DNA of 64,000 bases, taken from positions 11,495 to 75,494 of the forward strand of contig CAIWAD010000172.1 in the NCBI GenBank assembly GCA_903910645.1. The letters are read 5' to 3'. Below the pieces are notes generated by a model that did no database searches, had not been told where the DNA came from, and was given only the letters and a program-made list of their open reading frames with translations. The translations under genes and the position numbers were made by a program. Positions within the stretch are counted from its first letter, which is position 1; each line of letters opens with the position of its first letter. Source of the stretch: an uncultured bacterium. GTDB lineage: Bacteria > CAIWAD01. Positions 799 through 58,630 of the stretch are shown here, piece after piece.

Positions 799-1158
799 TC
801 AAAGGGCCAGAAGGCCCAGGGCCACCCAGGCCGCCAGCAGCGCCACTCCACCCAGGGGTGTGACCGCACCCAGCCAGCGCTGGCCGCTCAAGGCCATGGC
901 GTACAGGCTTCCACTGAACAGCAGGATGCCCAGGATGAACAGGATGCCGGCGATGCGGGCGGTGCGAGAGGGCTCGGGCAGAAGGCCCAGAGCCAGGAGC
1001 GGCACTGTGTGGATGGCCTGGTAAAGCACAGCGGTGCGCCACCAGTCCGTGGCCTGGACTGTTAGAGTCTCTTTCAGGGCATGGGCGCCAAAGGCCCCCA
1101 GCGCCACCGCCAGGAATCCATTCACCGCGGCGGCCAGCCAGAATGCGTTCAGTTGCAC
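799..1158 (-). CDS. DUF423 domain membrane protein
   Basis: 119 aa from the GTG at 1158 within ORF 799..1296. It shows the GAFGAHAL motif and four hydrophobic helices. The start overlaps the upstream gene stop by 10 nt. Confidence 0.75.
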   Translation of the reverse strand: MQLNAFWLAAAVNGFLAVALGAFGAHALKETLTVQATDWWRTAVLYQAIHTVPLLALGLLPEPSRTARIAGILFILGILLFSGSLYAMALSGQRWLGAVTPLGGVALLAAWVALGLLAL

Positions 1159-2945: not shown

Positions 2946-3135
2946 ATGGGCTCCAGTGCGCTTGAAGTAGGATGGGCTTCAGCCCATCCGTGGGTGACGA
3001 TGAGGGCTCGCGCCGTGCGGAACATCCATGACCATCCCGCTGTGCGGCACCCCATTGAAAATAGGGAGAGGGCCGTGGGGCGGCAACGCACCATGCCGAG
3101 GGAATGGGTTAATTCATCAACACGCATAGCCGCCG

Positions 3136-3957
3136 TCAATTGACGCTTGGCGTCTCCGGCAACCCTGCTTCCCCGCGAAAGAGACCCTCCCTGTCCACCA
3201 GGCGCCAGTGCAGCAGACGCAGGGCCAGCCACGCGCTAAGGCTGACGGACGCAAGAATGGCCAGCATGATCATCATCTGGTAACCAATGGCCGTGGCCGG
3301 CGGGCTCCCGCCCAGGATCTGCCCGGTCATCATGCCGGGAATGGACACAAGACCGATGGTGGCAGTGGTGTTCAGCGTGGGCAGCAGGGCCAGTCGCAGG
3401 GCCCCGCTGGAAAAACGACGGCGTGCTTCGTCCACCGAAGCCCCCAGGCCCAGCAGGAGATCCCATTCCCGACGGCCTTCCGCCCCCAACAGTCGGGCGG
3501 ACTGCTTTTCCAGCGCCAGCGTTATGCCGTTCATGGAATTGCCCAGGATCATGCCGCCCAGGGGAATGGCATACCGTGCGTACAGGAGCGGATGAGGACG
3601 CACCACCACGGCCAGGCAATAGGCCAGCACCGTGCCGCCTCCGGCGCACAGGACTGCCAGCAGCATCAAGGGAAGGCCGGGAAGCTTCAAGCCCGTGCGG
3701 CTCAAAATGGTGTGGGCCGCCGCACCCTGCATCACCAGCAGCCAGCCCACGGTAAGCAGGGAGTGGTTTACGCGGAACAGGACCTCCAGCACCAGACCCA
3801 GGGCCGACAGCTGCAGCACCATGCGGGCCAGGGCGCCCAGCAGTTGCTTTCCCAAAGGCAGGCGCATGTCGTGGAAAACCCACAAAGGCGCCAGAGCCAG
3901 CAGAAAGGCCAGCCCCAAGCCCAGCATGCCCAGCTCGGCGACGCCTTCAGTTTTCAT
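3136..3957 (-). CDS. fetB: UPF0014/FetB-type ABC exporter permease
   Basis: 273-aa polytopic membrane ORF (…IPLGGMILGNSMNGITLALE…GLVSIPGMMTGQILGG…). It overlaps the upstream ATPase gene by 11 nt. Confidence 0.75.
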   Translation of the reverse strand: MKTEGVAELGMLGLGLAFLLALAPLWVFHDMRLPLGKQLLGALARMVLQLSALGLVLEVLFRVNHSLLTVGWLLVMQGAAAHTILSRTGLKLPGLPLMLLAVLCAGGGTVLAYCLAVVVRPHPLLYARYAIPLGGMILGNSMNGITLALEKQSARLLGAEGRREWDLLLGLGASVDEARRRFSSGALRLALLPTLNTTATIGLVSIPGMMTGQILGGSPPATAIGYQMMIMLAILASVSLSAWLALRLLHWRLVDREGLFRGEAGLPETPSVN

Positions 3958-8574: not shown

Positions 8575-9519
8575 ATGCCTTTGCTTTTGGATCCAGCGGG
8601 CCGCCGCATGCGCAAACTGAGGCTCTCCTTGACGGACGCCTGCCAGTTGCGCTGCTTCTACTGTCTGCCCCACACGCCGCGTTTCCTGCCCCACCGGGAT
8701 CTGCTGACCCCGGCGGAGCTTCTGCCCATGGTGGGGCGACTGGTGGAGTTGGGACTGGACCAGGTGCGCATCACTGGTGGAGAGCCCACCGTGCGCCCGG
8801 AACTGCTGGACATTGTGCGCGGCCTTGGCCGCCTTCCCCTGGAACGCCTGGGCATGACCACCAATGCCCTGCGGCTGGAGGCCTTGCTGCCAGCCCTGTG
8901 GCGGGCGGGCCTGCGCAATGTGAACATCAGCCTGGACAGTCTGCGTGAAGAGGTCTACGCCCGCATCACTGGTGGCAGGCGTCCGGAAGATGTGTTGCGC
9001 GCCGCCCTGAAGGCCCGGGACATGGGCTTCGAGGTGAAGCTGAACACCGTGCTCTTCCGTGGCTTGAACCAGGACGAGGTGGTGGACTTCCTGCGCTTTT
9101 CCGAGCGCGAGGCCATTCCCGTGCGCTTCCTGGAACTGATGCGCATTGGTCCGGCGCACCGCGAGCAGCGCAGCCTCTTCATCGCTGCCAGCGAGGTGAT
9201 TGAAGCTCTGCGCCACGCAGGCGAGACGCTGCGACCATTGCCCGGTCCGCCCGACGCCACCGCCTTTGAGTACGCCACGGCGGCGGGAGCGCGCGTGGGT
9301 TTCATTGCCAGTGAATCCCAGCCTTTCTGCGCCGGGTGCTCTCGCCTGCGCCTGTCCGCCACCGGCTTCCTGCGCGCCTGCCTGATGCAGGAGGACGGCC
9401 TTGCCCTGGGCGGACTGCCGCTGGAGGACTATCCCGCCGCCCTGCGGTCGGTGATGGCGCGCAAGCCACTGGACCGCCTGCCCCACACGGAGCAGCTCAT
9501 GAACCGCATTGGAGGATGA
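8575..9519 (+). CDS. moaA: GTP 3',8-cyclase (radical SAM)
   Basis: RKLRLSLTDACQLRCFYC carries the CX3CX2C motif. The C-terminal cluster motif is CAGCSRLRLSATG. The start nearly abuts the moeA stop. Confidence 0.9.
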   Translation: MPLLLDPAGRRMRKLRLSLTDACQLRCFYCLPHTPRFLPHRDLLTPAELLPMVGRLVELGLDQVRITGGEPTVRPELLDIVRGLGRLPLERLGMTTNALRLEALLPALWRAGLRNVNISLDSLREEVYARITGGRRPEDVLRAALKARDMGFEVKLNTVLFRGLNQDEVVDFLRFSEREAIPVRFLELMRIGPAHREQRSLFIAASEVIEALRHAGETLRPLPGPPDATAFEYATAAGARVGFIASESQPFCAGCSRLRLSATGFLRACLMQEDGLALGGLPLEDYPAALRSVMARKPLDRLPHTEQLMNRIGG

Positions 9520-10028
9520 GCGTGGCCGATCTGTCCCACCTGGATGCCCAGGGCCGCCCCGCCATGGTGGATGTGGGGGCCAAGGACTCCACCGCCCGCC
9601 GTGCCCTGGCGGAGGCCCGGGTGTGGCTTCCGCCCGTGGTAAGTGCCCTGCTTGAGTCCGAGGGCCCGCGCAGCGCCAAGGGTCCCGTCTACACCACCGC
9701 CATCATTGCCGGAGTGCAGGCCGCCAAGCGCACGGGCGAACTCATTCCTCTGTGCCATCCCTTGCCCCTGGAGCATGTGGCCGTGCGCATCCACTCTGAA
9801 GTGGCTGATCAGGGCGAAGGCGCCTGGGCCGTGGTGCGCTGTGAGGCCTCCCTTCATGGCCGCACGGGTGTGGAAATGGAAGCCCTCACGGGAGCGGCGG
9901 TGGCGGCGCTGACCATTGTGGACATGTGCAAGGCCCTGAGCGTGGAGCTGCGCGTTGAAGGCCTGCGTCTGCTTGAGAAGGAAGGTGGCCGCCGACGCGT
10001 GGTGAATGGGCGGGAAGTGTCGGCATGA
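9516..10028 (+). CDS. moaC: cyclic pyranopterin monophosphate synthase
   Basis: The sequence LSHLDAQGRPAMVDVGAKDST.R.A...LIPLCHPLPL...VEMEALTGAAVAALTIVDMCKA is MoaC-like. An ATGA overlap links it to moaA. Confidence 0.92.
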   Translation: MSVADLSHLDAQGRPAMVDVGAKDSTARRALAEARVWLPPVVSALLESEGPRSAKGPVYTTAIIAGVQAAKRTGELIPLCHPLPLEHVAVRIHSEVADQGEGAWAVVRCEASLHGRTGVEMEALTGAAVAALTIVDMCKALSVELRVEGLRLLEKEGGRRRVVNGREVSA

Positions 10029-11074
10029 CGGACGCTTCCTGTGGACATGCCAATGGAGGCGCCGGACACTTCCATGCACGGGAGCTGCAACTGCAGGGCG
10101 TGGCACCAGCCCAGCTCAGTCGCGCCGCCACAAGCCTGATCCTGGCCCTATCCGCCCACGGCTCAGTGGGCGTGGTGCACACCCGGGCATCCGTTGAGGA
10201 ATGGCGGCTGCACAAAGGGCGCGAAACGCCACGCCAGTTAAGGCTCAATACTACGGACGATCCGGCGCGACGCGTGCTGTTGGCGCAGGCCTTCTTCCAG
10301 GATGCCTGGGTCCTGCTGCACCTGGGAGGAGCGCGGCGTCCACAAGCGTTGTCGCTGGAGGTGGGAGATGGGGCAAAGGGCTTGCACATATGCCTGGAAG
10401 GCGGTGAGCCTTGTGCATTGGAAGTTCTTCCCGCCATGGTGGAGCAGCTCGTGGCGCGGTGGAGCCAAACGGCCCTTCCGCTGATGGGCCTGGTCCTGTC
10501 CGGCGGGAAGAGTCTTCGCATGGGCCGGGACAAGGCGCTGTTGGAGTGGGAAGGGGAAGCCCTGGTCCTGCGCCAGGCCCGCTTGTTGAAGGAATGGTGC
10601 GATCAGGTTTTTCTTTCCGCCCGCTCCGGCCAGGGGCGCGACGCAATGGGGCCAACCGTGCTGGAAGACCGCCATTCATGTCCTGGGCCAATCGCTGGCA
10701 TTCTCACGGCATTGGAGGAGAATCCCCAGGCCGCGTGGCTTGTTCTGGCCTGCGATCTGCCCCTGGTGGACAACTCCGTCCTGCAAGCGCTGGTTGCCGG
10801 ACGCGACCCCATGGGGCATGGCACGGCCTTTCGTTCTCCCCATGACAAACGGCCTGAAGCCCTGTGCGCCATTTGGGAACCCGCCGCCCGCGCATTGATC
10901 CTGCGGGCGCTGGCGGCAGACATGCAGTGTCCACGCCGCATCCTGGGCATGGGAAACACGCGTCTGCTGGATCCCGGCTCGGCCCACTTCCTCTTCAATG
11001 TGAACCGCCCGGAGGATCTGGTGCAGGCCAGACAAGGCCGCCAACTTCCTCCCCACCACAAGGATGCACCATGA
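10025..11074 (+). CDS. mobA: molybdenum cofactor guanylyltransferase fused to an unrecognised N-terminal domain of about 150 aa
   Basis: The C-terminal half carries GLVLSGGKSLRMGRDKALL and LVLACDLPL, which are MobA motifs. The N-terminal 10025..10480 has no motif I recognise. ATGA overlaps occur at both ends. Confidence 0.8.
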   Translation: MTDASCGHANGGAGHFHARELQLQGVAPAQLSRAATSLILALSAHGSVGVVHTRASVEEWRLHKGRETPRQLRLNTTDDPARRVLLAQAFFQDAWVLLHLGGARRPQALSLEVGDGAKGLHICLEGGEPCALEVLPAMVEQLVARWSQTALPLMGLVLSGGKSLRMGRDKALLEWEGEALVLRQARLLKEWCDQVFLSARSGQGRDAMGPTVLEDRHSCPGPIAGILTALEENPQAAWLVLACDLPLVDNSVLQALVAGRDPMGHGTAFRSPHDKRPEALCAIWEPAARALILRALAADMQCPRRILGMGNTRLLDPGSAHFLFNVNRPEDLVQARQGRQLPPHHKDAP

Positions 11075-11310
11075 AGTTGAGCCTGCGCTGGGTGGCTTTG
11101 TTGCGCGACGAGCGCGGTCTGGCCCACGAGGAGTTGGACTGGCCGGGGGGTGACTTGGCCGCCCTCTACGCGGAACTGCGGAAGCGCCATGGGTTCAGCC
11201 TGCCGCCGGAGCGCGTGCTGGTGGCGCTCAATGAAGAGTTCGCCCAATGGACGGACGAGCCCCGTCCGGGCGATGAGGTGGTCTTCCTGCCGCCGGTGGC
11301 GGGCGGATGA
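11071..11310 (+). CDS. moaD: molybdopterin synthase sulfur carrier subunit
   Basis: 79 aa, ending ...VVFLPPVAGG with the C-terminal Gly-Gly. ATGA overlaps link it to both neighbours. Confidence 0.85.
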   Translation: MKLSLRWVALLRDERGLAHEELDWPGGDLAALYAELRKRHGFSLPPERVLVALNEEFAQWTDEPRPGDEVVFLPPVAGG

Positions 11311-11756
11311 GCAACTTCCAATTGCAGGATGGCGCCCTGGACGAGGGCCAGCTGGCCGCTGAGTTGGTCCATGCGGGAGCAGGGGCCCTGGTGGGTTTCG
11401 CCGGAAGGGTGCGCAACCACCACGAAGGCCGCCCGGTGCTGGCGCTGGATTATGAGGCGCTGGATGCCCTGTGCCGCAAGGAGGGGGCGCGGGTGCTGGA
11501 CGAAGCCCTCCAACGCTTTCCCGTGATGGCCGTCCGCTGTGTGCACGGCCTTGGCCACATGGAGCCCGGCGACTGCGCCGTGTGGGTGGGCGTGCTGGCG
11601 GTTCACCGCCGGGAGGCCTTCACCGCCGCGTCGTGGATCATTGATGAAGTGAAACGGCGCCTGCCCATCTGGAAATGCGAGCACTACGCCGATGGCACGC
11701 GCCAATGGGTGAATTGCCTGGCCTGCGCCCACGGCACGGAGGATTCCCATGTTTGA
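11307..11756 (+). CDS. moaE: molybdopterin synthase catalytic subunit
   Basis: GALVGFAGRVRNHHEGR.V..L.YEA and the conserved PIWK(C)EHY motif are present. Confidence 0.88.
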   Translation: MSNFQLQDGALDEGQLAAELVHAGAGALVGFAGRVRNHHEGRPVLALDYEALDALCRKEGARVLDEALQRFPVMAVRCVHGLGHMEPGDCAVWVGVLAVHRREAFTAASWIIDEVKRRLPIWKCEHYADGTRQWVNCLACAHGTEDSHV

Positions 11757-12819
11757 TTCACCCGGATTGACCCAGGCGGAGCGCGCCTGGTACCAGAGCC
11801 AGTTGGCACTGCCGGAGCTGGGCGAGGCGGGCCAGCAGCGCCTGAGGGCATCCCGTGTCCTGGTGGTGGGCGCGGGAGGCCTGGGTTGCCCCGTGCTGAT
11901 GGAACTGGCCATAGCGGGAGTGGGCTTCCTGCGCATTTGCGAGGCCGATACCGTGGAAGCGCACAACCTGCACCGTCAGCCGCTCTACACGGCCACCCAG
12001 GTGGGCCAGCCCAAGGGACGCCTGGCGCGCATTCGTCTGCAGGAAATGAATCCGGCCCTGCAGGCGGAGTGGGAGCCCCGCGCCTTTACCCAGGCGCACG
12101 CGGCGGAGATGCTGCATGGGATGGATCTGGCGCTGGACTGCGGCGACAACCTGGAGCTCTCCTTTGCCATGAACGACGCCTGCCTGCGCGCCGGTGTGCC
12201 TTTGGTGTGCGCCGCCGTGCACCGCTGGGAGGGCCAGGTGTGGAGCCTGAAGCCAGGCGGCCCGGGCGGTTGTTTGCGCTGCCTGTGGCCACAGCAGCCC
12301 CCGGAGGCATCGAGCTGCACGCGCAGCGGCGTGCTGGGCGCCATCACCGGCCTGGTGGGATCCTGGCAGGCGGTGGAAGCCCTGCGCCTCCTCCTCCATC
12401 TTCCCCACACCCTGGAAGAGGAGATGCTGCTGGTGGATGTCCGGGAGTCCTCCTTGCGTCGCGTGCGCCGTCAGCGCAGGCAGGGCTGTCCCGCCTGCTC
12501 GCCACACCCCGAGATTCCTGTCATGGCGCCGCATGTGGATGAGCAGGAGGTTGAGGGCCAGGATGCGCAGCTTAGCGCATGGCGGCATGCCACCGTGGTG
12601 GATTTGCGTGAAGTGGGCGAACCCGGCTGTCCCATTCCACCCGGCTTGCGCGTGATTCACCGGCCCTTGAGCGGCCTGCACTTCCCCGACCATGGACTGC
12701 CGGAGGACGATCTCCTGGTGGTGTGCGCCCACGGTGTGCGCAGCTTGTGGGTGGTGAACCGTCTGCGGGCCCTGGGCCATGAGCGTTGCTGGAGCTTGAA
12801 AGGCGGAATGGAAAGGTAG
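11749..12819 (+). CDS. moeB: molybdopterin-synthase adenylyltransferase with a C-terminal rhodanese domain (MoeB/MoeZ type)
   Basis: ThiF/E1 nucleotide loop VLVVGAGGLGCP, zinc CXXC pairs (CLRC, CPAC), and a C-terminal rhodanese loop VVCAHGVRS are present. Confidence 0.88.
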   Translation: MFDSPGLTQAERAWYQSQLALPELGEAGQQRLRASRVLVVGAGGLGCPVLMELAIAGVGFLRICEADTVEAHNLHRQPLYTATQVGQPKGRLARIRLQEMNPALQAEWEPRAFTQAHAAEMLHGMDLALDCGDNLELSFAMNDACLRAGVPLVCAAVHRWEGQVWSLKPGGPGGCLRCLWPQQPPEASSCTRSGVLGAITGLVGSWQAVEALRLLLHLPHTLEEEMLLVDVRESSLRRVRRQRRQGCPACSPHPEIPVMAPHVDEQEVEGQDAQLSAWRHATVVDLREVGEPGCPIPPGLRVIHRPLSGLHFPDHGLPEDDLLVVCAHGVRSLWVVNRLRALGHERCWSLKGGMER

Positions 12820-13065
12820 CGCGCGCCAAAACCCCACCGCAGCACTCATACTTGAGCCACGGATTCCTTCAAAGCGCAGCGTCTCTCCTGCCCTGCGCCT
12901 GGTCATCCCAGTAAAAGCTGGGATCTCTTGTCAGCATGGATTCCCGCTTTCGCATACATGACAGGTCCGTGTTCTGCTCTCGTCACAGTGCCAGCCTTGT
13001 CGCCACCAAAACAAGCGTCCCCATCTTTTTACTGACAATTCTTTCGCAAAAAGCCTGTCAATCTC

Positions 13066-13094
13066 TTGACTTTCACTTGTCGGCCTGCTAACAT
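13066..13094 (+). promoter_or_regulatory. candidate sigma70-type promoter of the ArsR/octahaem operon
   Basis: TTGACT (13066-13071), a 17-nt spacer, then TAACAT (13089-13094). It sits about 40 nt upstream of the arsR-family ATG, which has a GAGGA RBS at 13126-13130. Confidence 0.45.
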
Positions 13095-13096
13095 GT

Positions 13097-13114
13097 CGCA
13101 TATCCGGTTATGCG
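13097..13114 (+). promoter_or_regulatory. 18-bp near-perfect palindrome, candidate repressor operator
   Basis: CGCATATCC|GGTTATGCG has one mismatch. It lies immediately downstream of the -10 element. Confidence 0.45.
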
Positions 13115-13134
13115 GATTTATTCATGAGGACAAA

Positions 13135-13476
13135 ATGAAGCGAAGCAATCAGCAGATCCGACGCGCCAGCCTTGTGTTCAAGGCTCTGGCCCATCCTCAT
13201 CGGCTGCGCATCGCCTGCTTGCTCATAGACAACGGCCCCATGAGCCAGAAGCAGCTGGTGGAAGAGCTGGCCCTTCCCCAAAGCACGGTGGCGCGCTTGC
13301 TGGAGCCATTGCGCGCCACTGGCCTGGTGGTGGCCCTGCGACAGGGCACTGAAGTGAGCCTGAGTGTGCCGGGGGAAATGCTTAGCCAGATACTGGACTC
13401 CATGTGCGTGTGGTTTGAGGACAAGGCGGCCCGGGAGGCCAAGGAGGACGAGATGGCGACAGGTAGTGCCCAATGA
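13135..13476 (+). CDS. ArsR/SmtB-family transcriptional regulator
   Basis: Internal ATG of ORF 13066..13476. The sequence FKALAHPHRLRIACLL...MSQKQLVEELALPQSTVARLLEPLRATGLV is a winged HTH of the ArsR family. Confidence 0.85.
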   Translation: MKRSNQQIRRASLVFKALAHPHRLRIACLLIDNGPMSQKQLVEELALPQSTVARLLEPLRATGLVVALRQGTEVSLSVPGEMLSQILDSMCVWFEDKAAREAKEDEMATGSAQ

Positions 13477-14924
13477 GGGCGCCTTGGCTGGTGGCCCTGG
13501 TGGGCGTGGTGGCCGCGGGCAGCCTGGTGGCGGGCCTGTGGCTGGGTGGCGGAGCCAAGGACAAGGCCCCGGAACCCCGCTTCAGCACGGCCGTGAAGAC
13601 CACCCCGAAGAATCCGCTGGCGGGGCGCAGCAAGCCCCACCTGGACCACAGCGCCTTCTTCCCGGACAGCATCGCCACCCCCCAGGAGGTGACCCTGCGC
13701 TGCCTGGAGTGCCACAAGGACGCGGCGCACCAGGTGATGCAGACGGCCCACTGGACCTGGCTGTCCGGGGATGTGATGCGCAACGGCGAGCTGGTGCGCA
13801 TTGGCAAAAAGAACCTGCTCAACAATTTCTGCATCAGCATCAACGGGAACTGGGCCAGCTGCACCAAGTGCCACGCCGGCTACGGCTGGGGCAGCGCGGA
13901 CTTCGACTTCACCAAGCAGGAGAATGTGGACTGTCTGGTCTGCCACGACGGCAGCGCGGGCTACAGCAAGGGGAAGATGGGCCTGCCCGGCGAGAAGGTG
14001 GACCTGCGCGCCGCCGCGGGCAGTGTGCGCATGCCCCGGCGCGACAACTGCGGCGCCTGTCACTTCAACGGTGGCGGCGGCATGGGCGTGAAGCACGGCG
14101 ATCTGGACGACAGCCTCATCAACGGCAGCGGGGACAACGATGTGCACATGGGGCGCCTGGGCTTCGACTGCGTGGACTGCCACGCCACGGAGGAGCACCG
14201 CATCCCCGGCAAGATGAACGCCACCTACTCGGACAGCACCCGCGCCCTGCGCATGGAGTGCGACGACTGCCATGGCGCCACGCCCCACGCCGATGCCCAG
14301 CTGAACAAGCATGTGGCCCGCGTGGCCTGCCAGAGCTGCCACATTCCGGCTTTTGCCCGCAAGTACCCCACCAAGATGGACTGGGATTGGAGCCAGGCCG
14401 GCGACAGCACGCGCAAGGACGATCCCCACGCCTACCTGCGCATCAAGGGCGCTTTCATCTACAAGGACAATGTGGTCCCCGAGTATGCCTGGTTCAACGG
14501 CAAGATGGAGCGCTACATCCTGGGCGACACGCTGAGCGGTCCGGACCAGGCCATGAACAAGCCCATAGGAAGCCGGGCGGACAAGACGGCCAAGATCTGG
14601 CCCTTCAAGGTCCACCGTGCGAAGCAGATCTTTGATCCGGTGAACCGCGTGCTCATTCCACCGGTCACCAGCGGAGAGGGCGGCTTCTGGACGGAGTTCG
14701 ACTGGGCCAAGGCCGCCCGTCTGGGCATGGAACAGGCGGGACTTCCCTACAGCGGGAAATTCGCCTTCACCGACACGCACATGTACTGGCCCATCAATCA
14801 CATGACCGCCCCCAAGGAGAAGGCCCTGGCCTGCACCGAATGCCATTCCCCTAATGGACGGCTGGACTGGCAGGCCCTGGGCTACAAGGGAGACCCCGTG
14901 GGAGGAACACGCCATGCGCGCTAG
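13473..14924 (+). CDS. octahaem c-type cytochrome, tetrathionate reductase (Otr)-family-like
   Basis: 483 aa with an N-terminal signal/anchor. It has exactly 8 CXXCH motifs: CLECH, CTKCH, CLVCH, CGACH, CVDCH, CDDCH, CQSCH and CTECH. An ATGA overlap links it to the arsR-family gene. Confidence 0.8.
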   Translation: MRAPWLVALVGVVAAGSLVAGLWLGGGAKDKAPEPRFSTAVKTTPKNPLAGRSKPHLDHSAFFPDSIATPQEVTLRCLECHKDAAHQVMQTAHWTWLSGDVMRNGELVRIGKKNLLNNFCISINGNWASCTKCHAGYGWGSADFDFTKQENVDCLVCHDGSAGYSKGKMGLPGEKVDLRAAAGSVRMPRRDNCGACHFNGGGGMGVKHGDLDDSLINGSGDNDVHMGRLGFDCVDCHATEEHRIPGKMNATYSDSTRALRMECDDCHGATPHADAQLNKHVARVACQSCHIPAFARKYPTKMDWDWSQAGDSTRKDDPHAYLRIKGAFIYKDNVVPEYAWFNGKMERYILGDTLSGPDQAMNKPIGSRADKTAKIWPFKVHRAKQIFDPVNRVLIPPVTSGEGGFWTEFDWAKAARLGMEQAGLPYSGKFAFTDTHMYWPINHMTAPKEKALACTECHSPNGRLDWQALGYKGDPVGGTRHAR

Positions 14925-15426
14925 AGCATTCTTGAACCCTTATGTGGGAGGCGTCATCCTGGGCGTGGTGCTCTTCGCCTCTTTCGCCATCACCCACAGC
15001 GGGCTGGGCGCTTCCGGCGCCATCAGCCGCCTGCAGGCCGGCGTGATGGAAGTGGTGGCCCCCGGCCATGTGGACCGCACGGGCTATCTGGCGGCCATGG
15101 GCGGCGGCACGCGCATGGCCCTGAACCACAGCAGCATGTTCATGCTGGCGGGCACCTTCCTGGGTGGACTGGCTTCCGCCTTCCTGGCGGGCAGATTGAA
15201 ACCGGAAGTCTGCCGCGGTCCCCAGGTGGGCAAGGGCCGCCGCCTGCTGCTCGCCCTGCTGGGCGGCACCATCATGGGTTTTGGCGCCCGCCTGGCCCGG
15301 GGCTGCACCAGCGGCCAGGCCCTTAGTGGCGGTGCCGTGCTCAGTGCCGGCAGCTGGGTCTTCATGTTCGCCGTGTTCGCGGGCGCCTACGCACTGGCCT
15401 GGTTCGTGCGTCGGCTGTGGAATTAG
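14914..15426 (+). CDS. YeeE/YedE family sulfur-compound transporter, half-size subunit
   Basis: Internal ATG of ORF 14854..15426. It has four TM helices and the GFGARLARGCTSGQALSG loop. It overlaps the octahaem gene by 11 nt. Confidence 0.8.
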   Translation: MRARAFLNPYVGGVILGVVLFASFAITHSGLGASGAISRLQAGVMEVVAPGHVDRTGYLAAMGGGTRMALNHSSMFMLAGTFLGGLASAFLAGRLKPEVCRGPQVGKGRRLLLALLGGTIMGFGARLARGCTSGQALSGGAVLSAGSWVFMFAVFAGAYALAWFVRRLWN

Positions 15427-15435
15427 GAGGGCGCC

Positions 15436-16617
15436 ATGCTTCCCCTTGATCTGGCTTCCGCGGGAGCCCTGCTCAACAATCTGGTCTTCATGCTCATCGG
15501 ACTGGCCTTTGGCGCGGCGCTGGAGCAGTCGGGCTTCGGCGACAGCCGCAACCTGGCCGCACAGTTCTATCTGAAGGACATGCGCGTGCTGAAGACCATG
15601 TTCGGCGCCATCCTTACCGCCTGCCTGCTGCTCTTCCTGTCGGCGGCGTTGGGATGGCTGGACTTCTCCAAGATCTTCGTGAACCAAACCTACCTGTGGC
15701 CCGGCATCGTGGGTGGCCTGGTAATGGGCGTGGGCTTCGTCATTGGCGGCTACTGTCCGGGCACCTCCCTGGTCAGCGCAGCCAGTTTCAAGGGTGACGG
15801 CGCCATGTTCGTGGCGGGCACCGTGGTGGGCGCCGGCATTTTCGGTGAAATGGCCGACGAGATCGGCGCCTTCTGGAACGGCTCCTACACCGAACGACTG
15901 CTGCTCAGCGATGTCTTCGGCTGGAGCATTGGCGCCACGGTGGTGGCGGTGACCCTTCTGGCCCTGGTCTTCTTCTTCGCCGCGGAAAAGGTGGAGGAAT
16001 GGATGGCCGGAGACGGGCCACGCTGGAAACCCACCAACCGCCGCTACCTGGGCGCCGGGGCGCTGGCGTTGGTGGTGGCCCTGTTCATCTGGGGGAAGGG
16101 CATGCCCAGCCCCGAGGAGAAGTGGGAAATCGCCGGCGGCGAGCTGCAGCCCCTGCTGGACCAGCGCGAAGTCTTCATCCACCCGCTGGAGTATGTGAAG
16201 ACCTGGAATGATCCCGCCGTGCGCCTGGTGACCCTGGATCTGCGTGACAGCACGGCCTTCGCCGCCTTCCATCTGGACGCGGCGCGAAGCGTCACCTATC
16301 CCGGCCTGCTGGACAAAGAACTGGTGTTTGAACTGGATCAGCTGCCGCCCCAGGGCGTGGTGGTGCTGGTAAGCGAGGACGAGGCCATGGCCGTGTCCGC
16401 CTGGAAGCGCCTGAAAATGCAGGGCGTGAGCAACCTCTACATCCTGGATCAGGGGCTGAAGGGTTGGAGCGCGCTGTTCGCGCCACTGCAGGAGGCTCAC
16501 CACGGTTTCGACCTGTCCCGTCCGCCCTCCCGCGTGCTGGAGGCTTTCCCTGAAGGCACCTGGCAGGCCAAGATCAAGCTGAAGACCGCCCGGCGCGCCG
16601 GCGGCCTGTGCAGTTGA
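15436..16617 (+). CDS. YeeE/YedE family half-transporter fused to a C-terminal rhodanese-like domain lacking the catalytic Cys
   Basis: An AGGAGG RBS precedes the ATG. The VIGGYCPGTSLVSAA loop is present. The C-terminal region of about 110 aa (VRLVTLDLRD...GVVVLVSEDEAMAVSAWKRL...GVSNLYILDQGLKGW) has rhodanese topology, with Ser at 16372-16374 where the active-site Cys is expected. Confidence 0.75.
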   Translation: MLPLDLASAGALLNNLVFMLIGLAFGAALEQSGFGDSRNLAAQFYLKDMRVLKTMFGAILTACLLLFLSAALGWLDFSKIFVNQTYLWPGIVGGLVMGVGFVIGGYCPGTSLVSAASFKGDGAMFVAGTVVGAGIFGEMADEIGAFWNGSYTERLLLSDVFGWSIGATVVAVTLLALVFFFAAEKVEEWMAGDGPRWKPTNRRYLGAGALALVVALFIWGKGMPSPEEKWEIAGGELQPLLDQREVFIHPLEYVKTWNDPAVRLVTLDLRDSTAFAAFHLDAARSVTYPGLLDKELVFELDQLPPQGVVVLVSEDEAMAVSAWKRLKMQGVSNLYILDQGLKGWSALFAPLQEAHHGFDLSRPPSRVLEAFPEGTWQAKIKLKTARRAGGLCS

Positions 16618-16670
16618 ACGCGCAATTCCGGCGCGACCCCGTGCTCGCGCCCAGTTGGAGTGACGCTCTG

Positions 16671-18503
16671 ATGCCTTTCCTGTCCCCCTTCCGGCCGCGC
16701 GCCCTGCTGGTCAGCCTCTTGCTGCCCGTCCTGGCCGCCGCCGCCCCCCAGAATTGTGCAGGCTGCCACGAGGACAGCGTGCACGCCCAGGCCTTCGCCG
16801 CCTCCGTCCATCAGGATCTGGCCTGCACGGCCTGCCACGAGCCAAGCGCCCAGGCGGTGCCGGCGCCAGGCTGCGCCAGCGGCTTCACGCCCATGGACTG
16901 TGCGCGTTGCCACGAGCAACAGGCCGCCGAGCACACCAAGAGCGTGCACAATGGCAAGCGTCTGCCTGTGGCGTGCTGGCAGTGCCACCAGGACATCCAC
17001 ACGCTGGGCAGTGTGAAGGAGGACCGGCTGGCCACGGCCAAGGTCTGCGCCAGCTGCCACGAACATCAGGACGAGTACTTCCAGAGCGTCCACGGTGAGG
17101 CCCTGGCCAAGGGCAATGCCGACGCCCCGGGCTGCGTGGACTGCCACGGCACCCACAGTGTGCAGGCCGTGGACAACGACGGCCCCGGCCGCAGCCTTCA
17201 CACCAGCGCCTGCATTGGCTGCCACGCGGACAGCACGCGCATGGCGGCCAGCGATGTGGAAGTGGTGGCGGCGGAAACCTTCCTGCACAGCTTCCACGGC
17301 AAGAATGTGCGGCTGGGCCATGCGGAGACAGTGGCGGGCTGCGCGGACTGCCACGGCAGCCATGGCGTGTGGCCCAGGGACGATGCCCGCAGCACCGTGC
17401 ACGAAGCCAACAAGGTTGAAACCTGCCGCCAGTGCCACGCAGGCGCAAGCGCCTCCTTCGTGCGCTACCTGCCCCACGCCGACGACCGGGACAGCGCCTC
17501 AAGTCCGGCCCTTTACTGGACGCGCGTGGCCATGACGGCGCTGTTGGTGGGCACCTTCATCTTCTTCTGGGCACACAGCCTGTTGTGGGCCTTCCGCAGC
17601 TTCATCGAGCGCGAAAGCAAGGCCAAGGCCGCCCACGGCGCGGCCCATGCCGCCACCGTGCCGCCCAACCGCAGCTACCGACGCTTCCAGCGCAAGCACA
17701 TCCTGCTGCACGTGGTGGTGGTGGTCAGTTTCCTGACTCTTGCCCTTACCGGTTTGCCGCTGAAATTCGCCGGCACGGCCTGGGGCCACGCCATTGCCGA
17801 GTTCTTCGGCGGTCCGGACCGCGCGCGCTTCCTGCACCACAGCGCCGCGCTGGTCACTTTTGGCTGGTTCATGGTGGCGGTGGTGGGCAGCGTGCGCTTC
17901 CTGTGGACTGGCCGCGGCAAGCCCGGCGGCTGGATGGCGCGCCTGCTGGGGCCGGATTCCCTCTTCCCCACCATGCGGGATTGGCGGGACTTCAGCGCCA
18001 TGGTGAAGTGGTTCGCCTTCCGCGGCCCCAAGCCCAGTTTCGAGCGCTGGACCTACTGGGAGAAATTCGACTTCCTGGCCGTGTTCTGGGGCATGTTCGC
18101 CATCGGCGGCAGCGGTCTGATGCTATGGTTCCCGGAATTCTTCGCGCGGCTGCTGCCCGGCTGGGTCTTCAATGTGGCCACCATCATCCATAGCGACGAG
18201 GCCCTTTTGGCCACCGGCTTCATCTTCACCGTGCACTTCTTCAACACGCACTTCCGGCCGGAGAAATTCCCCATGGACACGGTGATCTTCAACGGTCGCG
18301 TGAGCCACGAAGAGATGCTGGAGGAGCGTGGCGACCAGTATCGGCGTTATGTGGATGAAGGCCGCCTGGAGGACTTCGTGGACGAGCGTCCCAAGCGCCT
18401 GCTGTGGGAGTTCAGCTACCGCATCTTTGGCCTGGTGGCCGTGGCCCTGGGCCTGGGATTGGCCCTTCTCATGGTCTTTACCCTGCTCGGCGGAGGGCAT
18501 TGA
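16671..18503 (+). CDS. multihaem cytochrome c (9 CXXCH) fused to a dihaem cytochrome b membrane domain (CbcL-like quinol oxidoreductase)
   Basis: Internal ATG of ORF 16608..18503, with a signal peptide MPFLSPFRPRALLVSLLLPVLAAAA. The nine motifs are CAGCH, CTACH, CARCH, CWQCH, CASCH, CVDCH, CIGCH, CADCH and CRQCH. These are followed by five hydrophobic helices bearing His (HILLH, FLHHS, IIHSDE...TVHFF). Confidence 0.8.
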   Translation: MPFLSPFRPRALLVSLLLPVLAAAAPQNCAGCHEDSVHAQAFAASVHQDLACTACHEPSAQAVPAPGCASGFTPMDCARCHEQQAAEHTKSVHNGKRLPVACWQCHQDIHTLGSVKEDRLATAKVCASCHEHQDEYFQSVHGEALAKGNADAPGCVDCHGTHSVQAVDNDGPGRSLHTSACIGCHADSTRMAASDVEVVAAETFLHSFHGKNVRLGHAETVAGCADCHGSHGVWPRDDARSTVHEANKVETCRQCHAGASASFVRYLPHADDRDSASSPALYWTRVAMTALLVGTFIFFWAHSLLWAFRSFIERESKAKAAHGAAHAATVPPNRSYRRFQRKHILLHVVVVVSFLTLALTGLPLKFAGTAWGHAIAEFFGGPDRARFLHHSAALVTFGWFMVAVVGSVRFLWTGRGKPGGWMARLLGPDSLFPTMRDWRDFSAMVKWFAFRGPKPSFERWTYWEKFDFLAVFWGMFAIGGSGLMLWFPEFFARLLPGWVFNVATIIHSDEALLATGFIFTVHFFNTHFRPEKFPMDTVIFNGRVSHEEMLEERGDQYRRYVDEGRLEDFVDERPKRLLWEFSYRIFGLVAVALGLGLALLMVFTLLGGGH

Positions 18504-18539
18504 TCCGCATCCGGCCAGGATTCCTGCCTGCCTATCACC

Positions 18540-18571
18540 ATGACGGCTCCTCCGGGAGCCGTCATTTTTTT
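18540..18571 (+). terminator. rho-independent terminator closing the multihaem operon
   Basis: atgacggctcc-tccg-ggagccgtcat gives an 11-bp stem followed by a T run (18565-18571). Confidence 0.85.
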
Positions 18572-18788
18572 AATAGGGCGGCCCTGTCATGCAGATTCAA
18601 ATTTCGGCTGGGATAGCCTTGGGGGAGCCAAATTTCATCAAGTGAAAACAAGAATTGAATAAACTCTGCATGGACTGAATTCAATAGAAATACAGGGCTC
18701 GGCATCAACTCTCCCAGCGCCCTCCCCGATAGGAAGTGAGCATTTATGACACATGTCCTAGCGATGCAGAATACAGCGGAGGGGCAGA

Positions 18789-19289
18789 TTGGATCCAAAG
18801 GACTACACGCGGTCGCGCTTTGTGGGCCTTCATTCCCAGGGTGTAAAGGAGATCGTCCTCATCGCCTTGCTGGCCGTGCTTGTCTGGATCCTGGCGGGGC
18901 GACTGGAATTGCTGGAGCAGATGGCGAATTTCACGCGCATGCACGAGCACTGGGAGCTGGACGAGCTGGTGGTGTCCACCACCTTCATGGGTCTGGCCCT
19001 GGGTGTCTTCGTGTTCCGCCGCTGGCGGGAGGCCTGCCATGTGGCCCAACGGCTGGAGTTGCAGCGCCAGGAGCTGGAGCAGGCCTTGAGTGAGGTGCGG
19101 CAGCTGCAGGGCATTATTCCCATCTGCGCGGCCTGCAAAAAGGTGCGCGACGAGGGCGGCTACTGGCATCAGGTGGAAGAATACCTGCGCTGCCACAGCA
19201 CGGCGGAATTCAGCCACAGCCTGTGCGCGGAATGCACCCATGTCTACTTCGCGGAACTGGCCGATGAACAGGGCCGCCTGCCCGTCTAG
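18789..19289 (+). CDS. small two-TM protein with a coiled coil and a C-terminal Cys4 (IPICxxCKKVRD...SHSLCxEC) motif
   Basis: TTG start with GGAGG 5 nt upstream, and GC3-biased codons. It has two TM helices, a coiled coil LELQRQELEQALSEVRQLQ, then GIIPICAACKKVRDEGGYWHQVEEYLRCHSTAEFSHSLCAEC. Confidence 0.65.
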   Translation: MDPKDYTRSRFVGLHSQGVKEIVLIALLAVLVWILAGRLELLEQMANFTRMHEHWELDELVVSTTFMGLALGVFVFRRWREACHVAQRLELQRQELEQALSEVRQLQGIIPICAACKKVRDEGGYWHQVEEYLRCHSTAEFSHSLCAECTHVYFAELADEQGRLPV

Positions 19290-19436
19290 GCATGTTCCCA
19301 TCCATCCCGCATCCTCGAGCTTCGAACTCCTCTTTGTTCTCCTTCTCCTTCTCGATTTCCACCCAACCACAAGCTCGAGACTCAAGTACGAGGCTCAAAC
19401 AAGAGGATGAATTCGAGGCTTGGATGGTGGGAGAAC

Positions 19437-21473
19437 TCAATTCTTCAAAACCCACCGCACACCCAGCCACTCCTCGTGGCCGTGCAGGGGACGATCCTCC
19501 ACCCGGGCGTTGTCCGCCAGCCCGAATGGATTGCGCAGGGCCCACATCAGGCTGAAGGCGCCCCGGGTGGCTTCGCCTTTCACCCACACCTCCGGCGCCG
19601 CCCACAGGGCATTGCCCCGGGAATCCACCCCGCCGTATTCGTGGTGCAGGCCCATAGTCACGCGCAGATTCAATTCCCGCCGGAAGAGCAGGCGTTCATG
19701 GGTCAGAACGGCATCGCTCATCCACTGGGGAAACTCGCGGCTGATCAATTCGCGATTGTCGTGGAACCAGGCCTGGGCGGCGTCCACGCGCCAGCGGGAA
19801 CTGAGCTGCCAGCCCAGGAAAGCCTGGGCACCGGCCTGCACATGATTCCAGCCCTTCCAGGTCCAGGTCAGGGAATCCGGCGTTTCCAGTGGATCGTCCC
19901 GCAGTTCCACGCGCCAGGCCCTCATGGCAAGGGACAGGCGGCCCGCCAGGGCGCGGGTGCCCAGGCGCAGTTCCTGCCGTTGCCAGCTTGAGGCACCCAG
20001 AGTGGAGTCTCCCACTAGATTCAAGTTGGCGTCCCGGCGCCAGGGGCTGATGACCGCGTCGGACAAGAGGGGCTTGCGGGTCAGGTGCAATTGCTCCGCC
20101 GTGGGTGCAAGGCGGCCACCATGAAGCAATAGGTCGGCCCAGGATTTCAGGCCACTGGCCCCCAGGCGCAAGCCGGCGCTGCCACCCCACAATTGGTCGT
20201 CTCCCGTGTGCCGCAGGGTGGCGGCGGGTTCCACCACCCAGCGTCGGCCCAGTCCCAACAAGGTCCAAGCGGCGGTGGCCTCCACCCGCTCTTCCAGGCG
20301 AGTGGACTTCCAGTCGTCGGAACTTAGCTGCTGGTGTTCTCCCGTGGCCTGCACGCGCCAACCGCCGCCGGCCCACACCTCGTCCAGGGAAAGGCTCAGC
20401 GCACGCAGCGTTTCCGCGTCACGCTGCTTCAGCACGCGATCAAAGGCCAGGCGATCCTCACGCTGCCAGGCATCCAGCTCCATGCTGCGGCTTGTGCCCA
20501 GGGTGCGCCCAAGGCGGGCGCGCAACAGGCTCTGATCCAGGCTGCGCCGTTGGCCATCGGCGTCCAGCACATCGCCGCGGTCGTGCAGCAGGCGCTGATC
20601 CAGGCGCAGCAACCAGTCACCGGCCACGGGGCGGTCCCAATTCCATTGGAACACATTGCCACGGAACTCCGCGCCCGGCACGCGCTCATGGGTGTAGATC
20701 TGTCGGCTGGCGGCCTGAAAGCGGCCTCCCAGCAAGGGGCGCTGGAAATCCCCATCCACCGAGATGAAGCCCATGAAGCCATCGGCCCAGGCCACGCGGG
20801 TGAGCACGCTGTCGTTCGTCGCGCGGCGGCTGCGGAAGGAAAGAAGCCCGCCGGGCCGCTCCCCCAGGCGGTTCCAGACATCAGCGCCGGCGGGAAGGCA
20901 TAGTCCCGGCGCCACCAGATTCACATCCGCCAGGCCGCTGATGCGGCTGGAAAGATCAATGCCGTCCAGCACCAGGGTGGACGCCCCAGGGCGCAAGCCA
21001 TCCAGTGCCAGCAACTGACGATGCCCCACCTGCCCTTGGTCGAAGAAGGGGCCGGGCACCAGTGGCAATAGCTGGTCGGCCAGATCTTCCGCCGGGCGGT
21101 CGCTGCTTTCGGAAAGGGTGGGAAGTGGGCGGTTCTGGGGACTAAGGTGACGCAGTATCTGGGGCCAGGTGCTGCCCTTGGCCCACAAGAGCTGCCACCA
21201 GGTGGGTGTTGCGGTGGAATCCGCCGCCAGACTGTCCGGCAGCTGGGAAAGCGCGTTGGCTCCGGGGAGTGCGCGTCCCGTGGTGCGGAAGGGAGAGGCC
21301 CCAGCAAGGCTGTCCGCCGGGCGGGCCAGGCTATCCGCGCCGCGCGTCATGGGAATCCACTGCACGGGGGCGTCCTGGGTGGCCAGAGCGGGAACCCAAG
21401 ACAGCGCCAAGGCAAAAAGAAGCACACGCCACCCCGCAAGGGCGCGGCGCGTGCTTCCCATGGTCGTCTTCAT
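19437..21473 (-). CDS. putative outer-membrane beta-barrel protein (TonB-dependent-receptor-like)
   Basis: Internal ATG of ORF 19437..21524, with a signal peptide MKTTMGSTRRALAGWRVLLFALALSWVPALA. The remainder of about 650 aa has alternating-hydrophobicity strands rich in W/R/G. The product assignment is weak. Confidence 0.55.
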   Translation of the reverse strand: MKTTMGSTRRALAGWRVLLFALALSWVPALATQDAPVQWIPMTRGADSLARPADSLAGASPFRTTGRALPGANALSQLPDSLAADSTATPTWWQLLWAKGSTWPQILRHLSPQNRPLPTLSESSDRPAEDLADQLLPLVPGPFFDQGQVGHRQLLALDGLRPGASTLVLDGIDLSSRISGLADVNLVAPGLCLPAGADVWNRLGERPGGLLSFRSRRATNDSVLTRVAWADGFMGFISVDGDFQRPLLGGRFQAASRQIYTHERVPGAEFRGNVFQWNWDRPVAGDWLLRLDQRLLHDRGDVLDADGQRRSLDQSLLRARLGRTLGTSRSMELDAWQREDRLAFDRVLKQRDAETLRALSLSLDEVWAGGGWRVQATGEHQQLSSDDWKSTRLEERVEATAAWTLLGLGRRWVVEPAATLRHTGDDQLWGGSAGLRLGASGLKSWADLLLHGGRLAPTAEQLHLTRKPLLSDAVISPWRRDANLNLVGDSTLGASSWQRQELRLGTRALAGRLSLAMRAWRVELRDDPLETPDSLTWTWKGWNHVQAGAQAFLGWQLSSRWRVDAAQAWFHDNRELISREFPQWMSDAVLTHERLLFRRELNLRVTMGLHHEYGGVDSRGNALWAAPEVWVKGEATRGAFSLMWALRNPFGLADNARVEDRPLHGHEEWLGVRWVLKN

Positions 21474-21524
21474 GCGTGCCAGCCGCGTCACGACAAGGCC
21501 GGACAAGTCCGGCCGCCGGGACAT

Positions 21525-32291: not shown

Positions 32292-32450
32292 GGGCGTCCT
32301 TCCACTTGATTCAAGGCATGGGCGGTTAAGCAGTGCGCACCCGCAAAGGAAGGGCCCAAAATAATGGGACTGAAGCAGTGCGGAAATAACAAGTGAAGGA
32401 AAGCGCTCAGTCCTTGGGACGGGCCATTTCAGACAGGCTGTCAAGGGCTC

Positions 32451-33290: not shown

Positions 33291-33458
33291 GGGATTCCTT
33301 GTGAAGATCAAAACAGCTCTAAGATCATGGTACGATTCTTGCTTTCCCTTGCCAACTTCGTCATGTCACACGCTCGGGTCCGCCCGGGAAGCACACCGTA
33401 CCGTTCACACGCATTTCCTTCCGTCATGTCTGGCGGAAGCCCAGCGCCGGAGAGGATA

Positions 33459-56229: not shown

Positions 56230-56242
56230 GCCTGTTCCCGCC

Positions 56243-57307: not shown

Positions 57308-57312
57308 GCAGC

Positions 57313-58620
<1,308 letters not shown>

Positions 58621-58630
58621 TCAGGCCGCT

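Follow-up and report, generated by a model that had tools for sequence, protein, structure and literature searches.

Otr, the octahaem cytochrome c of Shewanella oneidensis, reportedly had its crystal structure determined in 2004, and is said to have been found by Atkinson et al. in 2007 to reduce nitrite and hydroxylamine in vitro. Genome papers variously assign the protein to tetrathionate, nitrite or iron reduction. CbcL of Geobacter consists of a periplasmic domain with nine haems (residues 30–279) followed by six helices with two b haems, and oxidises quinol to supply acceptors in the periplasm (PMC9129911). StYeeE has an N-out/C-in topology in which two four-helix halves are linked by H7 (PMC7449682), and an arrangement of two half genes, PmpA/PmpB, has been described (PMC11582611). 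Relatives of all of these are encoded side by side in a block of five close-set, same-strand genes (13066–18572) of a 64,000-nucleotide stretch of contig CAIWAD010000172.1 from an uncultured bacterium, hereafter the window. Every part of the cluster belongs to a known family; what appears to be new is their assembly, in which Otr is joined by a cytochrome b-type quinol dehydrogenase of its own and by a split YeeE whose tethered domain, predicted to be periplasmic, ends in a Cys arm. The cluster is of the respiratory multihaem reductase kind. Its genes, all on the forward strand, are the following.

13135–13476, forward strand: gene 1, ArsR-family regulator, 113 amino acids (aa); its stop codon overlaps the otr start (ATGA)
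13473–14924, forward strand: gene 2, octahaem cytochrome c of the Otr family, 483 aa
14914–15426, forward strand: gene 3, PmpA-like YeeE/YedE half-transporter, 170 aa, equivalent to the C-terminal half of YeeE; Cys131 in GARxARGCTSGQ
15436–16617, forward strand: gene 4, the other YeeE half plus a rhodanese-like domain, 393 aa
16671–18503, forward strand: gene 5, fusion of a 9-haem c domain and a cytochrome b domain, 610 aa

A scan for Otr relatives, with one genome taken per species, yielded 80 loci from about ten phyla, and linkage was counted in the 54 loci that have at least 6 kb of flank downstream of otr. Both YeeE halves and the rhodanese domain were found in all of them (54 out of 54). 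The linked loci belong to Myxococcota, Bacteroidota, Ignavibacteria, Verrucomicrobiota, Chloroflexota, Spirochaetota, Planctomycetota, Bdellovibrionota, Desulfobacterota and Eisenbacteria, and reverse look-ups from two gene 4 homologues returned the same cluster. Clustering of the open reading frames (ORFs) around otr in the 80 loci revealed an ArsR-like gene as the only further conserved neighbour. A preliminary description of this DNA, made from the letters alone, had named co-occurrence of the families in other genomes as a test; the YeeE pair does co-occur in all 54 full-flank loci, and a quinol link accompanies otr in differing forms. The same description knew of no characterisation of this gene combination, and the searchable literature agrees, since searches pairing Otr with YeeE/YedE, rhodanese, cytochrome b or CbcL gave no description of the cluster.

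The constancy of this linkage bears directly on the view that Otr is here a nitrite or hydroxylamine reductase for ammonification or detoxification, accompanied by YeeE and rhodanese genes that are unrelated passengers. The Otr of S. oneidensis reduces both compounds in vitro, and otr is often assigned to nitrite reduction in genome papers. However, a YeeE pair retained in every full-flank locus across about ten phyla is incompatible with passenger status, nitrogen-cycle genes are not conserved nearby in the 80 loci, and the invariant non-haem Cys of Otr, together with the selenocysteine (Sec) variants described below, points to sulfur or selenium chemistry. We regard the nitrite explanation as hardly credible.

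The gene for the quinol link could be sorted into three forms, which differ in gene order and in the protein employed.

Form i: otr, YeeE-A, YeeE-B/Rhd, CbcL-like gene; the arrangement of the window, found in Myxococcota, Opitutaceae, Oligoflexia, Bacteroidota and Ignavibacteria (16 full-flank loci)
Form ii: otr, PhsC-like PF01292 cytochrome b gene (usually with 7 CXXCH), YeeE-A, YeeE-B/Rhd; found in Chloroflexota, Spirochaetota, Planctomycetota, Eisenbacteria and others
Form iii: otr with a C-terminal transmembrane (TM) helix, then a stand-alone cytochrome b gene; found on Fulvitalea axinellae pFA1 (with the YeeE pair) and in Paracoccus and Photobacterium (without YeeE)

In 44 out of 48 loci the PF01292 cytochrome b of form ii separates otr from the YeeE genes, and in at least 28 of these it is fused to seven CXXCH motifs; the best NCBIfam match of its b domain is PhsC. 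Fulvitalea axinellae DSM 100852, a cultured bacterium, carries its version of the cluster on plasmid pFA1 (AABK39_RS20025 to RS20040). Three non-orthologous cytochrome b solutions at one place provide strong comparative evidence for an exchange of electrons between Otr and the quinone pool, predicted to pass through a dedicated cytochrome b. The quinol link between a CbcL-like protein and Otr, as first proposed for the window, is strengthened by the finding that the CbcL-like protein is replaced elsewhere by a 7-haem/cytochrome b fusion or by a bare cytochrome b.

Several observations were made at individual loci. At the bare-cytochrome b loci of Fulvitalea (L084, 6884–8458) and Paracoccus (L083, 6863–8524), the C-terminal TM helix of Otr holds a His (…GLVGHAGLRIL… and …VAGVAGHGLLRLL…), reminiscent of the packing of the FdnH anchor on FdnI. 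The cytochrome b that follows otr in Paracoccus ferrooxidans pFER4 (L083, 8343–9178) is split over two frames and missing from the plasmid gene table; unless this is a sequencing error, the gene is a frameshifted pseudogene. An Eisenbacteria locus of the 7-haem form (L029) also possesses, just past its YeeE genes and on the other strand, a distantly related CbcL-like gene (15721–17298, reverse strand; about 30% identity). At Ignavibacteria-type loci, a gene for a FadL/TodX-family channel stands directly upstream of otr on the same strand (L013, 8123–9673; L020, 8231–9856; L087, 2376–3875), and the substrate may cross the outer membrane through this channel.

Gene 2 scores 556.7 bits against TIGR04315, the model for tetrathionate reductase family octahaem cytochromes c (cut-off 375), and a profile search with the HAO, ONR and MccA families, which had been named beforehand as the competing assignments, gave no match at E < 0.01; the original assignment to Otr is upheld. 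Residues 65–477 align with S. oneidensis Otr (1sp3) at 435 bits (E = 5e-129). The protein has an N-terminal signal or anchor helix (residues 6–24) and, as had been counted, exactly eight CXXCH motifs, at residues 77, 130, 154, 193, 233, 263, 286 and 454. The alignment also retains GKKN..NNFC of 1sp3. Its Lys, Lys112 of gene 2 (13806–13808), is the equivalent of Otr Lys56 at the haem-2 ligand position, which we take from the published structure to be the ligand of the catalytic haem 2. Its Cys, Cys120 (13830–13832), is a non-haem residue equivalent to Otr Cys64, and both positions are invariant among 23 relatives. The eight CXXCH motifs, the GKKN Lys and the NNFC Cys are thus all shared with the Shewanella protein. 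However, Shewanella Otr was studied as an isolated protein, whereas gene 2 is encoded alongside a quinol dehydrogenase of its own and two YeeE halves, one of them bearing the rhodanese arm. Selenocysteine forms have been catalogued for TIGR04315 proteins and for YeeE (GUxSG) (PMC13188914), which we read as pointing to redox-active Cys chemistry. In lucinid symbionts, otr adjoins divergent soxY/soxZ genes (PMC11237559). Papers on Dethiobacter, on Deferribacter and on multihaem selenoenzymes mention Otr in passing only.

The last gene of the operon, gene 5, comprises two parts.

16671–17510, forward strand: signal peptide and periplasmic nine-haem c domain (residues 1–280; multihaem Pfam and NCBIfam matches)
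17511–18503 including the stop codon, forward strand: six-helix cytochrome b domain of the FdnI/HydC type, predicted to be dihaem (residues 281–610)

Exactly nine CXXCH motifs, in agreement with the earlier count, lie between residues 29 and 256 of the 610, after the signal peptide. The membrane part was initially given five TM helices; hydropathy and an AlphaFold2 (AF2) model both predict six, with six invariant His residues. The model of residues 285–610 has a predicted local distance difference test (pLDDT) score of 79 and a predicted template-modelling score of 0.75, and in Foldseek it significantly matches FdnI alone (1kqf_C; E = 8e-5, prob 1.0, TMt 0.66). A weak TIGR01583 match was found in gene 5, and close relatives carry PF01292. 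Over 98–99% of its length the protein is 50–51% identical to 616–620-aa proteins of Geobacter, Geobacteraceae, Desulfuromonas versatilis and Geoalkalibacter. The nine CXXCH motifs, the FdnI fold and this full-length identity of about 50% to Geobacter proteins sustain the CbcL-like assignment made at the outset. With CbcL of G. sulfurreducens (GSU0274), gene 5 has in common the signal peptide, the nine-CXXCH c domain of about 255 aa and the six FdnI/HydC-type TM helices. However, the proposed acceptor of CbcL in Geobacter is PpcA, in a route of extracellular electron transfer, whereas gene 5 is the last gene of an otr operon. Because it closes that operon, Otr is the likely acceptor of its electrons. 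The D. versatilis homologue stands alone.

The sole structural match of the gene 5 b domain, FdnI, is a quinone reducer, which lends some weight to an opposite direction of flow. Otr would then oxidise periplasmic reduced sulfur (thiosulfate, or sulfane sulfur that the YeeE pair exports and the Cys arm retains), and the cytochrome b would deliver the electrons to the quinone pool, as happens in formate dehydrogenase-N or hydrogenase; the role would be detoxification of sulfide or persulfide under a persulfide-sensing ArsR regulator. Persulfide sensors of the ArsR family do control sulfide-detoxification operons, and gene 1 has a Cys at the SqrR Cys41 position and a second, C-terminal Cys. Moreover, the pathways in which arms of the SoxY type are known are oxidative, and sulfur oxidisers show otr-soxYZ synteny. 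Nevertheless, the tetrathionate/thiosulfate couple (about +200 mV) is too positive for the reduction of menaquinone or ubiquinone. CbcL has been characterised as a quinol oxidase with periplasmic acceptors, and PhsC, the best match of the form ii b domain, is likewise a quinol oxidase. The Otr activities on record are all reductive, and Fnr-like regulators next to the cluster suggest anaerobic respiration. An oxidative direction is accordingly judged unlikely.

Gene 4 consists of a membrane part, a soluble domain and a terminal arm.

15436–16104, forward strand: membrane part, PmpB-like, comprising the N-terminal half of YeeE, an H7-like helix and an extra TM helix (PF04143 profile positions 7–183)
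16168–16506, forward strand: rhodanese-like domain without the catalytic Cys (PF00581, 35.7 bits, cut-off 22.2)
16588–16614, forward strand: disordered C-terminal arm, ...ARRAGGLCS-COOH, with penultimate Cys392 (16609–16611)

That genes 3 and 4 are half-transporters of the YeeE/YedE family, as initially suggested by their GCTSG and GYCPGTS loops, was borne out: both loops are present with their Cys residues, and PF04143 matches gene 3 at 74.9 bits and gene 4 at 49 bits (cut-off 27). Gene 3 aligns to StYeeE residues 234–327, Cys293 included, and its Cys131 in the Cys293 loop is found in 72 out of 72 orthologues; both termini are positively charged, which predicts an N-in/C-in topology. Gene 4 has Cys107, within GGYCPGTS, at the position of StYeeE Cys91 (63 out of 63 orthologues), and the AF2 model and hydropathy give its membrane part six TM helices and two short re-entrant helices. 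Searched by sequence against solved structures, this part found no YeeE match and weak rhodanese matches only, and Foldseek with the whole gene 4 model returned rhodanese domains only, so that the YeeE assignment of gene 4 rests on Pfam and the motif. On family profiles and motifs, genes 3 and 4 are a split YeeE pair of the PmpAB type. Two half-size genes, and the lack of the Cys22 position, are features common to PmpAB and to genes 3 and 4. Unlike PmpA/PmpB, YeeE (TsuA) and SoxT, gene 4 adds an H7-like helix, an extra TM helix, a Cys-less rhodanese domain and a Cys arm.

The cargo of the pair had been proposed to be thiosulfate, if tetrathionate is the substrate, or a related sulfur species. 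Family membership lends thiosulfate no support: the TsuA equivalog model gives 30.9 bits for gene 3 and 17.2 bits for gene 4, far from the cut-off of 400; unlike YeeE (TsuA), the pair has no TusA/TsuB partner at its locus, and no TusA-like family is conserved around otr in the 80 loci. Thiosulfate import is probably an incomplete description, and an unproven one. The best NCBIfam matches of the two halves raise another candidate, namely the YedE/FdhT selenium model for gene 3 and seleno_YedE for gene 4, both far under their cut-offs. Otr might thus reduce selenite or tellurite, with the rhodanese arm binding selenium and the YedE-like pair moving selenium species. Gene 5 has a weak N-terminal match to ExtN/ExtO of the Geobacter selenite/tellurite operon, the literature ties the rhodanese-like lipoprotein ExtH to selenite handling, and a multihaem enzyme supports selenite-dependent oxidation of methyl viologen. 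Nevertheless, these matches all score weakly (53, 27 and 27 bits; cut-offs 350, 200 and 200), selD, selA and SECIS-related genes are not conserved in the 80 loci by ORF clustering, and Otr-family biochemistry concerns sulfur and nitrogen compounds only. A selenium or tellurium target is considered highly unlikely.

A PF00581 search had only been proposed as a check, and it revealed the C-terminal rhodanese-like domain of gene 4. The domain is modelled with confidence (pLDDT about 90) and matches rhodanese folds in Foldseek at prob 1.0, including the Cys-less Alr3790, which is also the best match by sequence in the PDB, and Wolinella Sud. The column of the active-site Cys in the rhodanese loop holds no Cys in any of the 63 gene 4 orthologues (VVLVSEDEAM in gene 4 itself). 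The extra TM helix that precedes the domain (residues 205–223; 16048–16104) is present in 63 out of 63 orthologues, and the net charge across these proteins is +2.1 before the helix and about 0 after it. The topology of YeeE, the addition of an H7-like helix and one more TM helix to its N-terminal half, and this charge pattern together predict that the rhodanese domain and its arm are periplasmic, beside Otr. The arm is modelled as disordered (pLDDT 30–49). Its penultimate Cys is kept in 62 out of 63 orthologues, as GGLC[SG] or GGCG-COOH, and its ending varies with the form of the cluster: ...RRAGGLCS-COOH in that of the window, ...KGGCG-COOH in form ii and ...QGGCT-COOH in Fulvitalea.

A flexible Gly-rich C-terminus with a conserved near-terminal Cys is also characteristic of the arms of SoxY (GGCGG-COOH) and DsrC, and by this analogy the gene 4 arm may be a sulfur carrier. 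However, SoxY has an Ig-like fold and a SoxZ partner, whereas the fold of gene 4 is that of rhodanese; no SoxZ is conserved in the 80 otr loci, and the likeness to SoxY-type carriers extends to the arm only. Sud of Wolinella, a periplasmic rhodanese-like polysulfide carrier for Psr, resembles gene 4 in its rhodanese fold and in the predicted location of the latter in the periplasm by a respiratory reductase. Its canonical rhodanese-loop Cys is missing in gene 4, and unlike SoxY, DsrC and Sud, the gene 4 domain is tethered to a channel rather than soluble. A Cys-less periplasmic domain with a conserved Cys arm points to covalent handling of sulfur at the periplasmic face, a reading that was absent from the preliminary description.

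The signals that flank the five genes are consistent with a single transcription unit.

13066–13094, forward strand: promoter-like sequence TTGACT-17-TAACAT, sigma-70-type with a TG-extended −10 box (consensus match)
13097–13114, no strand assigned: imperfect 18-bp palindrome CGCATATCC/GGTTATGCG, directly 3′ of the −10 box
18540–18572, forward strand: intrinsic terminator with an 11-bp G+C-rich stem (18540–18565), a 4-nt loop and T7

The packing of the genes was reproduced at every coordinate first given for it: an ATGA overlap of genes 1 and 2 at 13473–13476, an 11-nt overlap of genes 2 and 3 at 14914–14924, and spacings of 9 nt between genes 3 and 4 and of 53 nt between genes 4 and 5. An independent gene caller yields the same five products (113, 483, 170, 393 and 610 aa) on public contigs of the same organism. 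The true start of gene 1 is the ATG at 13135, after GAGGA; a longer ORF starting at 13066 was rejected, that position being the −35 box. Antisense ORFs of 572, 550 and 326 aa were likewise rejected as high-GC shadows, whose apparent families in ORF clustering mirror the real genes. The promoter-like site, the 18-bp palindrome and the terminator (11-bp stem and T run) noticed earlier are all present. The promoter-like match is unique within 12700–18900 (6.2 kb; 0.6 expected by chance). The palindrome has 9-nt arms with complementarity at 16 of 18 bases (89%), and its pattern occurs once in the window (0.06 matches expected by chance). The terminator folds at −32.1 kcal/mol (z = −6.16), and 0 out of 200 shuffled sequences fold as well. 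A signal scan found no convincing promoter or terminator inside the operon, where weak terminator-like matches within genes number 8 against a chance expectation of 4.6, and no Rfam family matches in 12700–19500 at E ≤ 0.1. Overlapping and close genes, one promoter-like site and one strong terminator are thus the combined signals of an operon.

Owing to its position, the palindrome may be the operator of the ArsR-family repressor; the candidate operator stretch for the gene 1 protein is CGCATATCCGGTTATGCG. Gene 1 scores 57.8 bits against NF033788 (ArsR/SmtB; cut-off 55) and also matches PF01022. It carries Cys28 and Cys91; the former aligns with the helix-2 Cys of Rhodobacter capsulatus SqrR (6o8l), in an alignment that stops short of Cys91. 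In common with SqrR and BigR, gene 1 belongs to the ArsR/SmtB family, and besides the Cys that aligns with helix 2 of SqrR it has a second one in its C-terminal helix; as in the BigR, PigS and SoxR systems, the regulator gene neighbours a YeeE-type transporter. However, its score against the BigR equivalog (31 bits) is far under the cut-off of 155, and Cys91 is no more than a candidate for the position of the second sensing Cys (SqrR Cys41/Cys107, BigR Cys42/Cys108). A literature search on TsoR, the subject of a weakly matching NCBIfam regulator model, gave no description of the cluster.

ORF clustering placed an ArsR-like gene near otr in 35 of the 80 loci, and regulators at other loci comprise two kinds of ArsR, an Fnr-like Crp protein, a sigma-54 activator and Rrf2. 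The description of the operon as ArsR-gated would fit the window locus and fails as a general trait, most of the closest loci having no ArsR; gating by ArsR is a local feature outside the conserved core. Bacteroidota loci have an Fnr-like regulator beside the cluster, in keeping with an anaerobic function. ArsR-like ORFs were seen 100–500 nt upstream of otr in 33 loci (for example L037, 9558–9905). The ArsR of the 7-haem/cytochrome b form has one conserved helix-1 Cys (…H.NICQALGDPKR…) and is missing both Cys of the window type, and the ArsR of an Oligoflexia locus (L006) resembles the two-Cys type of gene 1.

The variety of regulators also bears on whether the YeeE pair handles bulk sulfur at all. 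It could instead import trace sulfur as a signal for a cytoplasmic regulator, like SoxT1B in Hyphomicrobium. The YeeE-like SoxT1B transduces a signal to the ArsR-type SoxR/sHdrR (PMC11582611), and the ArsR-type regulator of the window is translationally coupled to otr. However, the YeeE pair and the Cys arm are kept where the regulator is Fnr-like, a sigma-54 activator or Rrf2, or where none is adjacent, and a periplasmic carrier domain with an invariant arm would be elaborate for sensor input. A role in signalling only is thus quite unlikely.

The family identities, conserved linkage, motifs and predicted topology set out above suggest a direction of electron flow, a substrate, a cargo for the channel, a role for the arm and a signal for the regulator, which may be combined as follows. 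The CbcL-like gene 5 would oxidise menaquinol at its FdnI-type dihaem b domain, and electrons would cross its nine c haems into the periplasm and pass to Otr. There Otr would reduce its substrate, at best guess tetrathionate or a related polythionate or sulfane-sulfur species, at the Lys-ligated haem beside the invariant Cys. Genes 3 and 4 would form an antiparallel YeeE channel of the PmpAB type, a heterodimer. The Cys of the periplasmic gene 4 arm would form a covalent adduct, either persulfide or thiosulfonate, with the sulfur substrate or product, and this sulfur would be either presented to Otr or fed into the YeeE channel. The heterodimer would move sulfur inward, with cytoplasmic assimilation to follow, and the two-Cys ArsR-family repressor at the palindrome would sense the imported sulfur. 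The block would accordingly be one autoregulated operon and a self-contained respiratory or detoxifying module for periplasmic inorganic sulfur. Operon, module and mechanism taken jointly form the explanation that we consider probable, with moderate confidence.

Several points weigh against it. Transcription, activity, substrate and localisation are predictions. Cytochromes b of the FdnI/HydC type run both ways, so that flow towards quinone is conceivable. PF01292 is below significance in gene 5 itself, and the CbcL likeness of this gene was judged by its architecture and by other Desulfuromonadia proteins rather than by comparison with GSU0274. The in vitro substrates of Otr include nitrite and hydroxylamine besides tetrathionate. 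To our knowledge, respiration of tetrathionate has no obvious need of an importer, and the Ttr system of Salmonella has none. The otr-cytochrome b loci of Paracoccus and Photobacterium, which lack YeeE, imply that the channel is dispensable for some Otr proteins. The membrane part of gene 4 was modelled with moderate confidence (pLDDT 50–85) because its partner, gene 3, was absent from the modelling, and the periplasmic location of the rhodanese domain is drawn from homology-based topology and charge bias only. Finally, the regulator is not conserved.

A further possibility, offered tentatively and with some doubt, is that Otr enzymes act mainly on sulfur bound to a carrier Cys (as a Cys-S-thiosulfonate or persulfide) and not on free tetrathionate. 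The carrier would be the swinging gene 4 arm, on a Cys-less rhodanese domain tethered to the heterodimeric YeeE channel. The whole would be a reductive, reverse-Sox-like machine on the quinone pool, whose arm would pass sulfur through the Cys relay of the channel, and the otr-soxYZ synteny of lucinid symbionts could, by analogy, be an independent version of the same principle.

The substrate, electron donor and role of Otr are an old question that the cluster makes testable, all the more as F. axinellae is a cultured host. The cluster names partners for Otr: on the side of electron input a cytochrome b-type quinol dehydrogenase, of which three interchangeable forms occur, and for the handling of sulfur a split YeeE whose Cys arm is predicted to be periplasmic. 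If the proposed mechanism is true, many otr genes in metagenome-assembled genomes from anoxic sediment, groundwater and wastewater could be annotated correctly, CbcL-type cytochromes would act beyond extracellular electron transfer, and YeeE-family channels would gain a tethered-carrier architecture.

Upstream of the operon, a molybdopterin operon (9336–12819, forward strand: moaC, mobA-like, moaD, moaE, moeB/ThiF) ends about 250 nt before the promoter. Its moeB/ThiF product has a weak C-terminal rhodanese match, and its MobA-like protein is longer at the N-terminus by about 150 aa, an extension that is unexplained. The upstream moa/moeB genes were rejected as part of the otr system, not being conserved beside otr at other loci. 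Just past the terminator lies a 166-aa ORF (18789–19289, forward strand) without a Pfam match, which gene calling on the public contigs of this organism also lists as a gene. Its product has a C-terminal ICAACKKVRDEGGYWHQVEEYLRCHSTAEFSHSLCAECTHVYF motif (CxxC...CxxC) besides two TM-like segments. A 695-aa ORF (19437–21524, reverse strand) with an N-terminal signal-like sequence and no Pfam match lies between the operon and rplS-trmD-rimM-ffh, and its product may be an outer-membrane protein. Elsewhere in the window, large ORFs without a Pfam match occur at 1143–3143, 39479–43675, 54376–56322 and 57271–58779, and two genes (28452–32444, reverse strand; 33327–38081, forward strand) encode proteins of 1330 and 1584 aa with peptidase C25 (gingipain-like) and propeptide domains.

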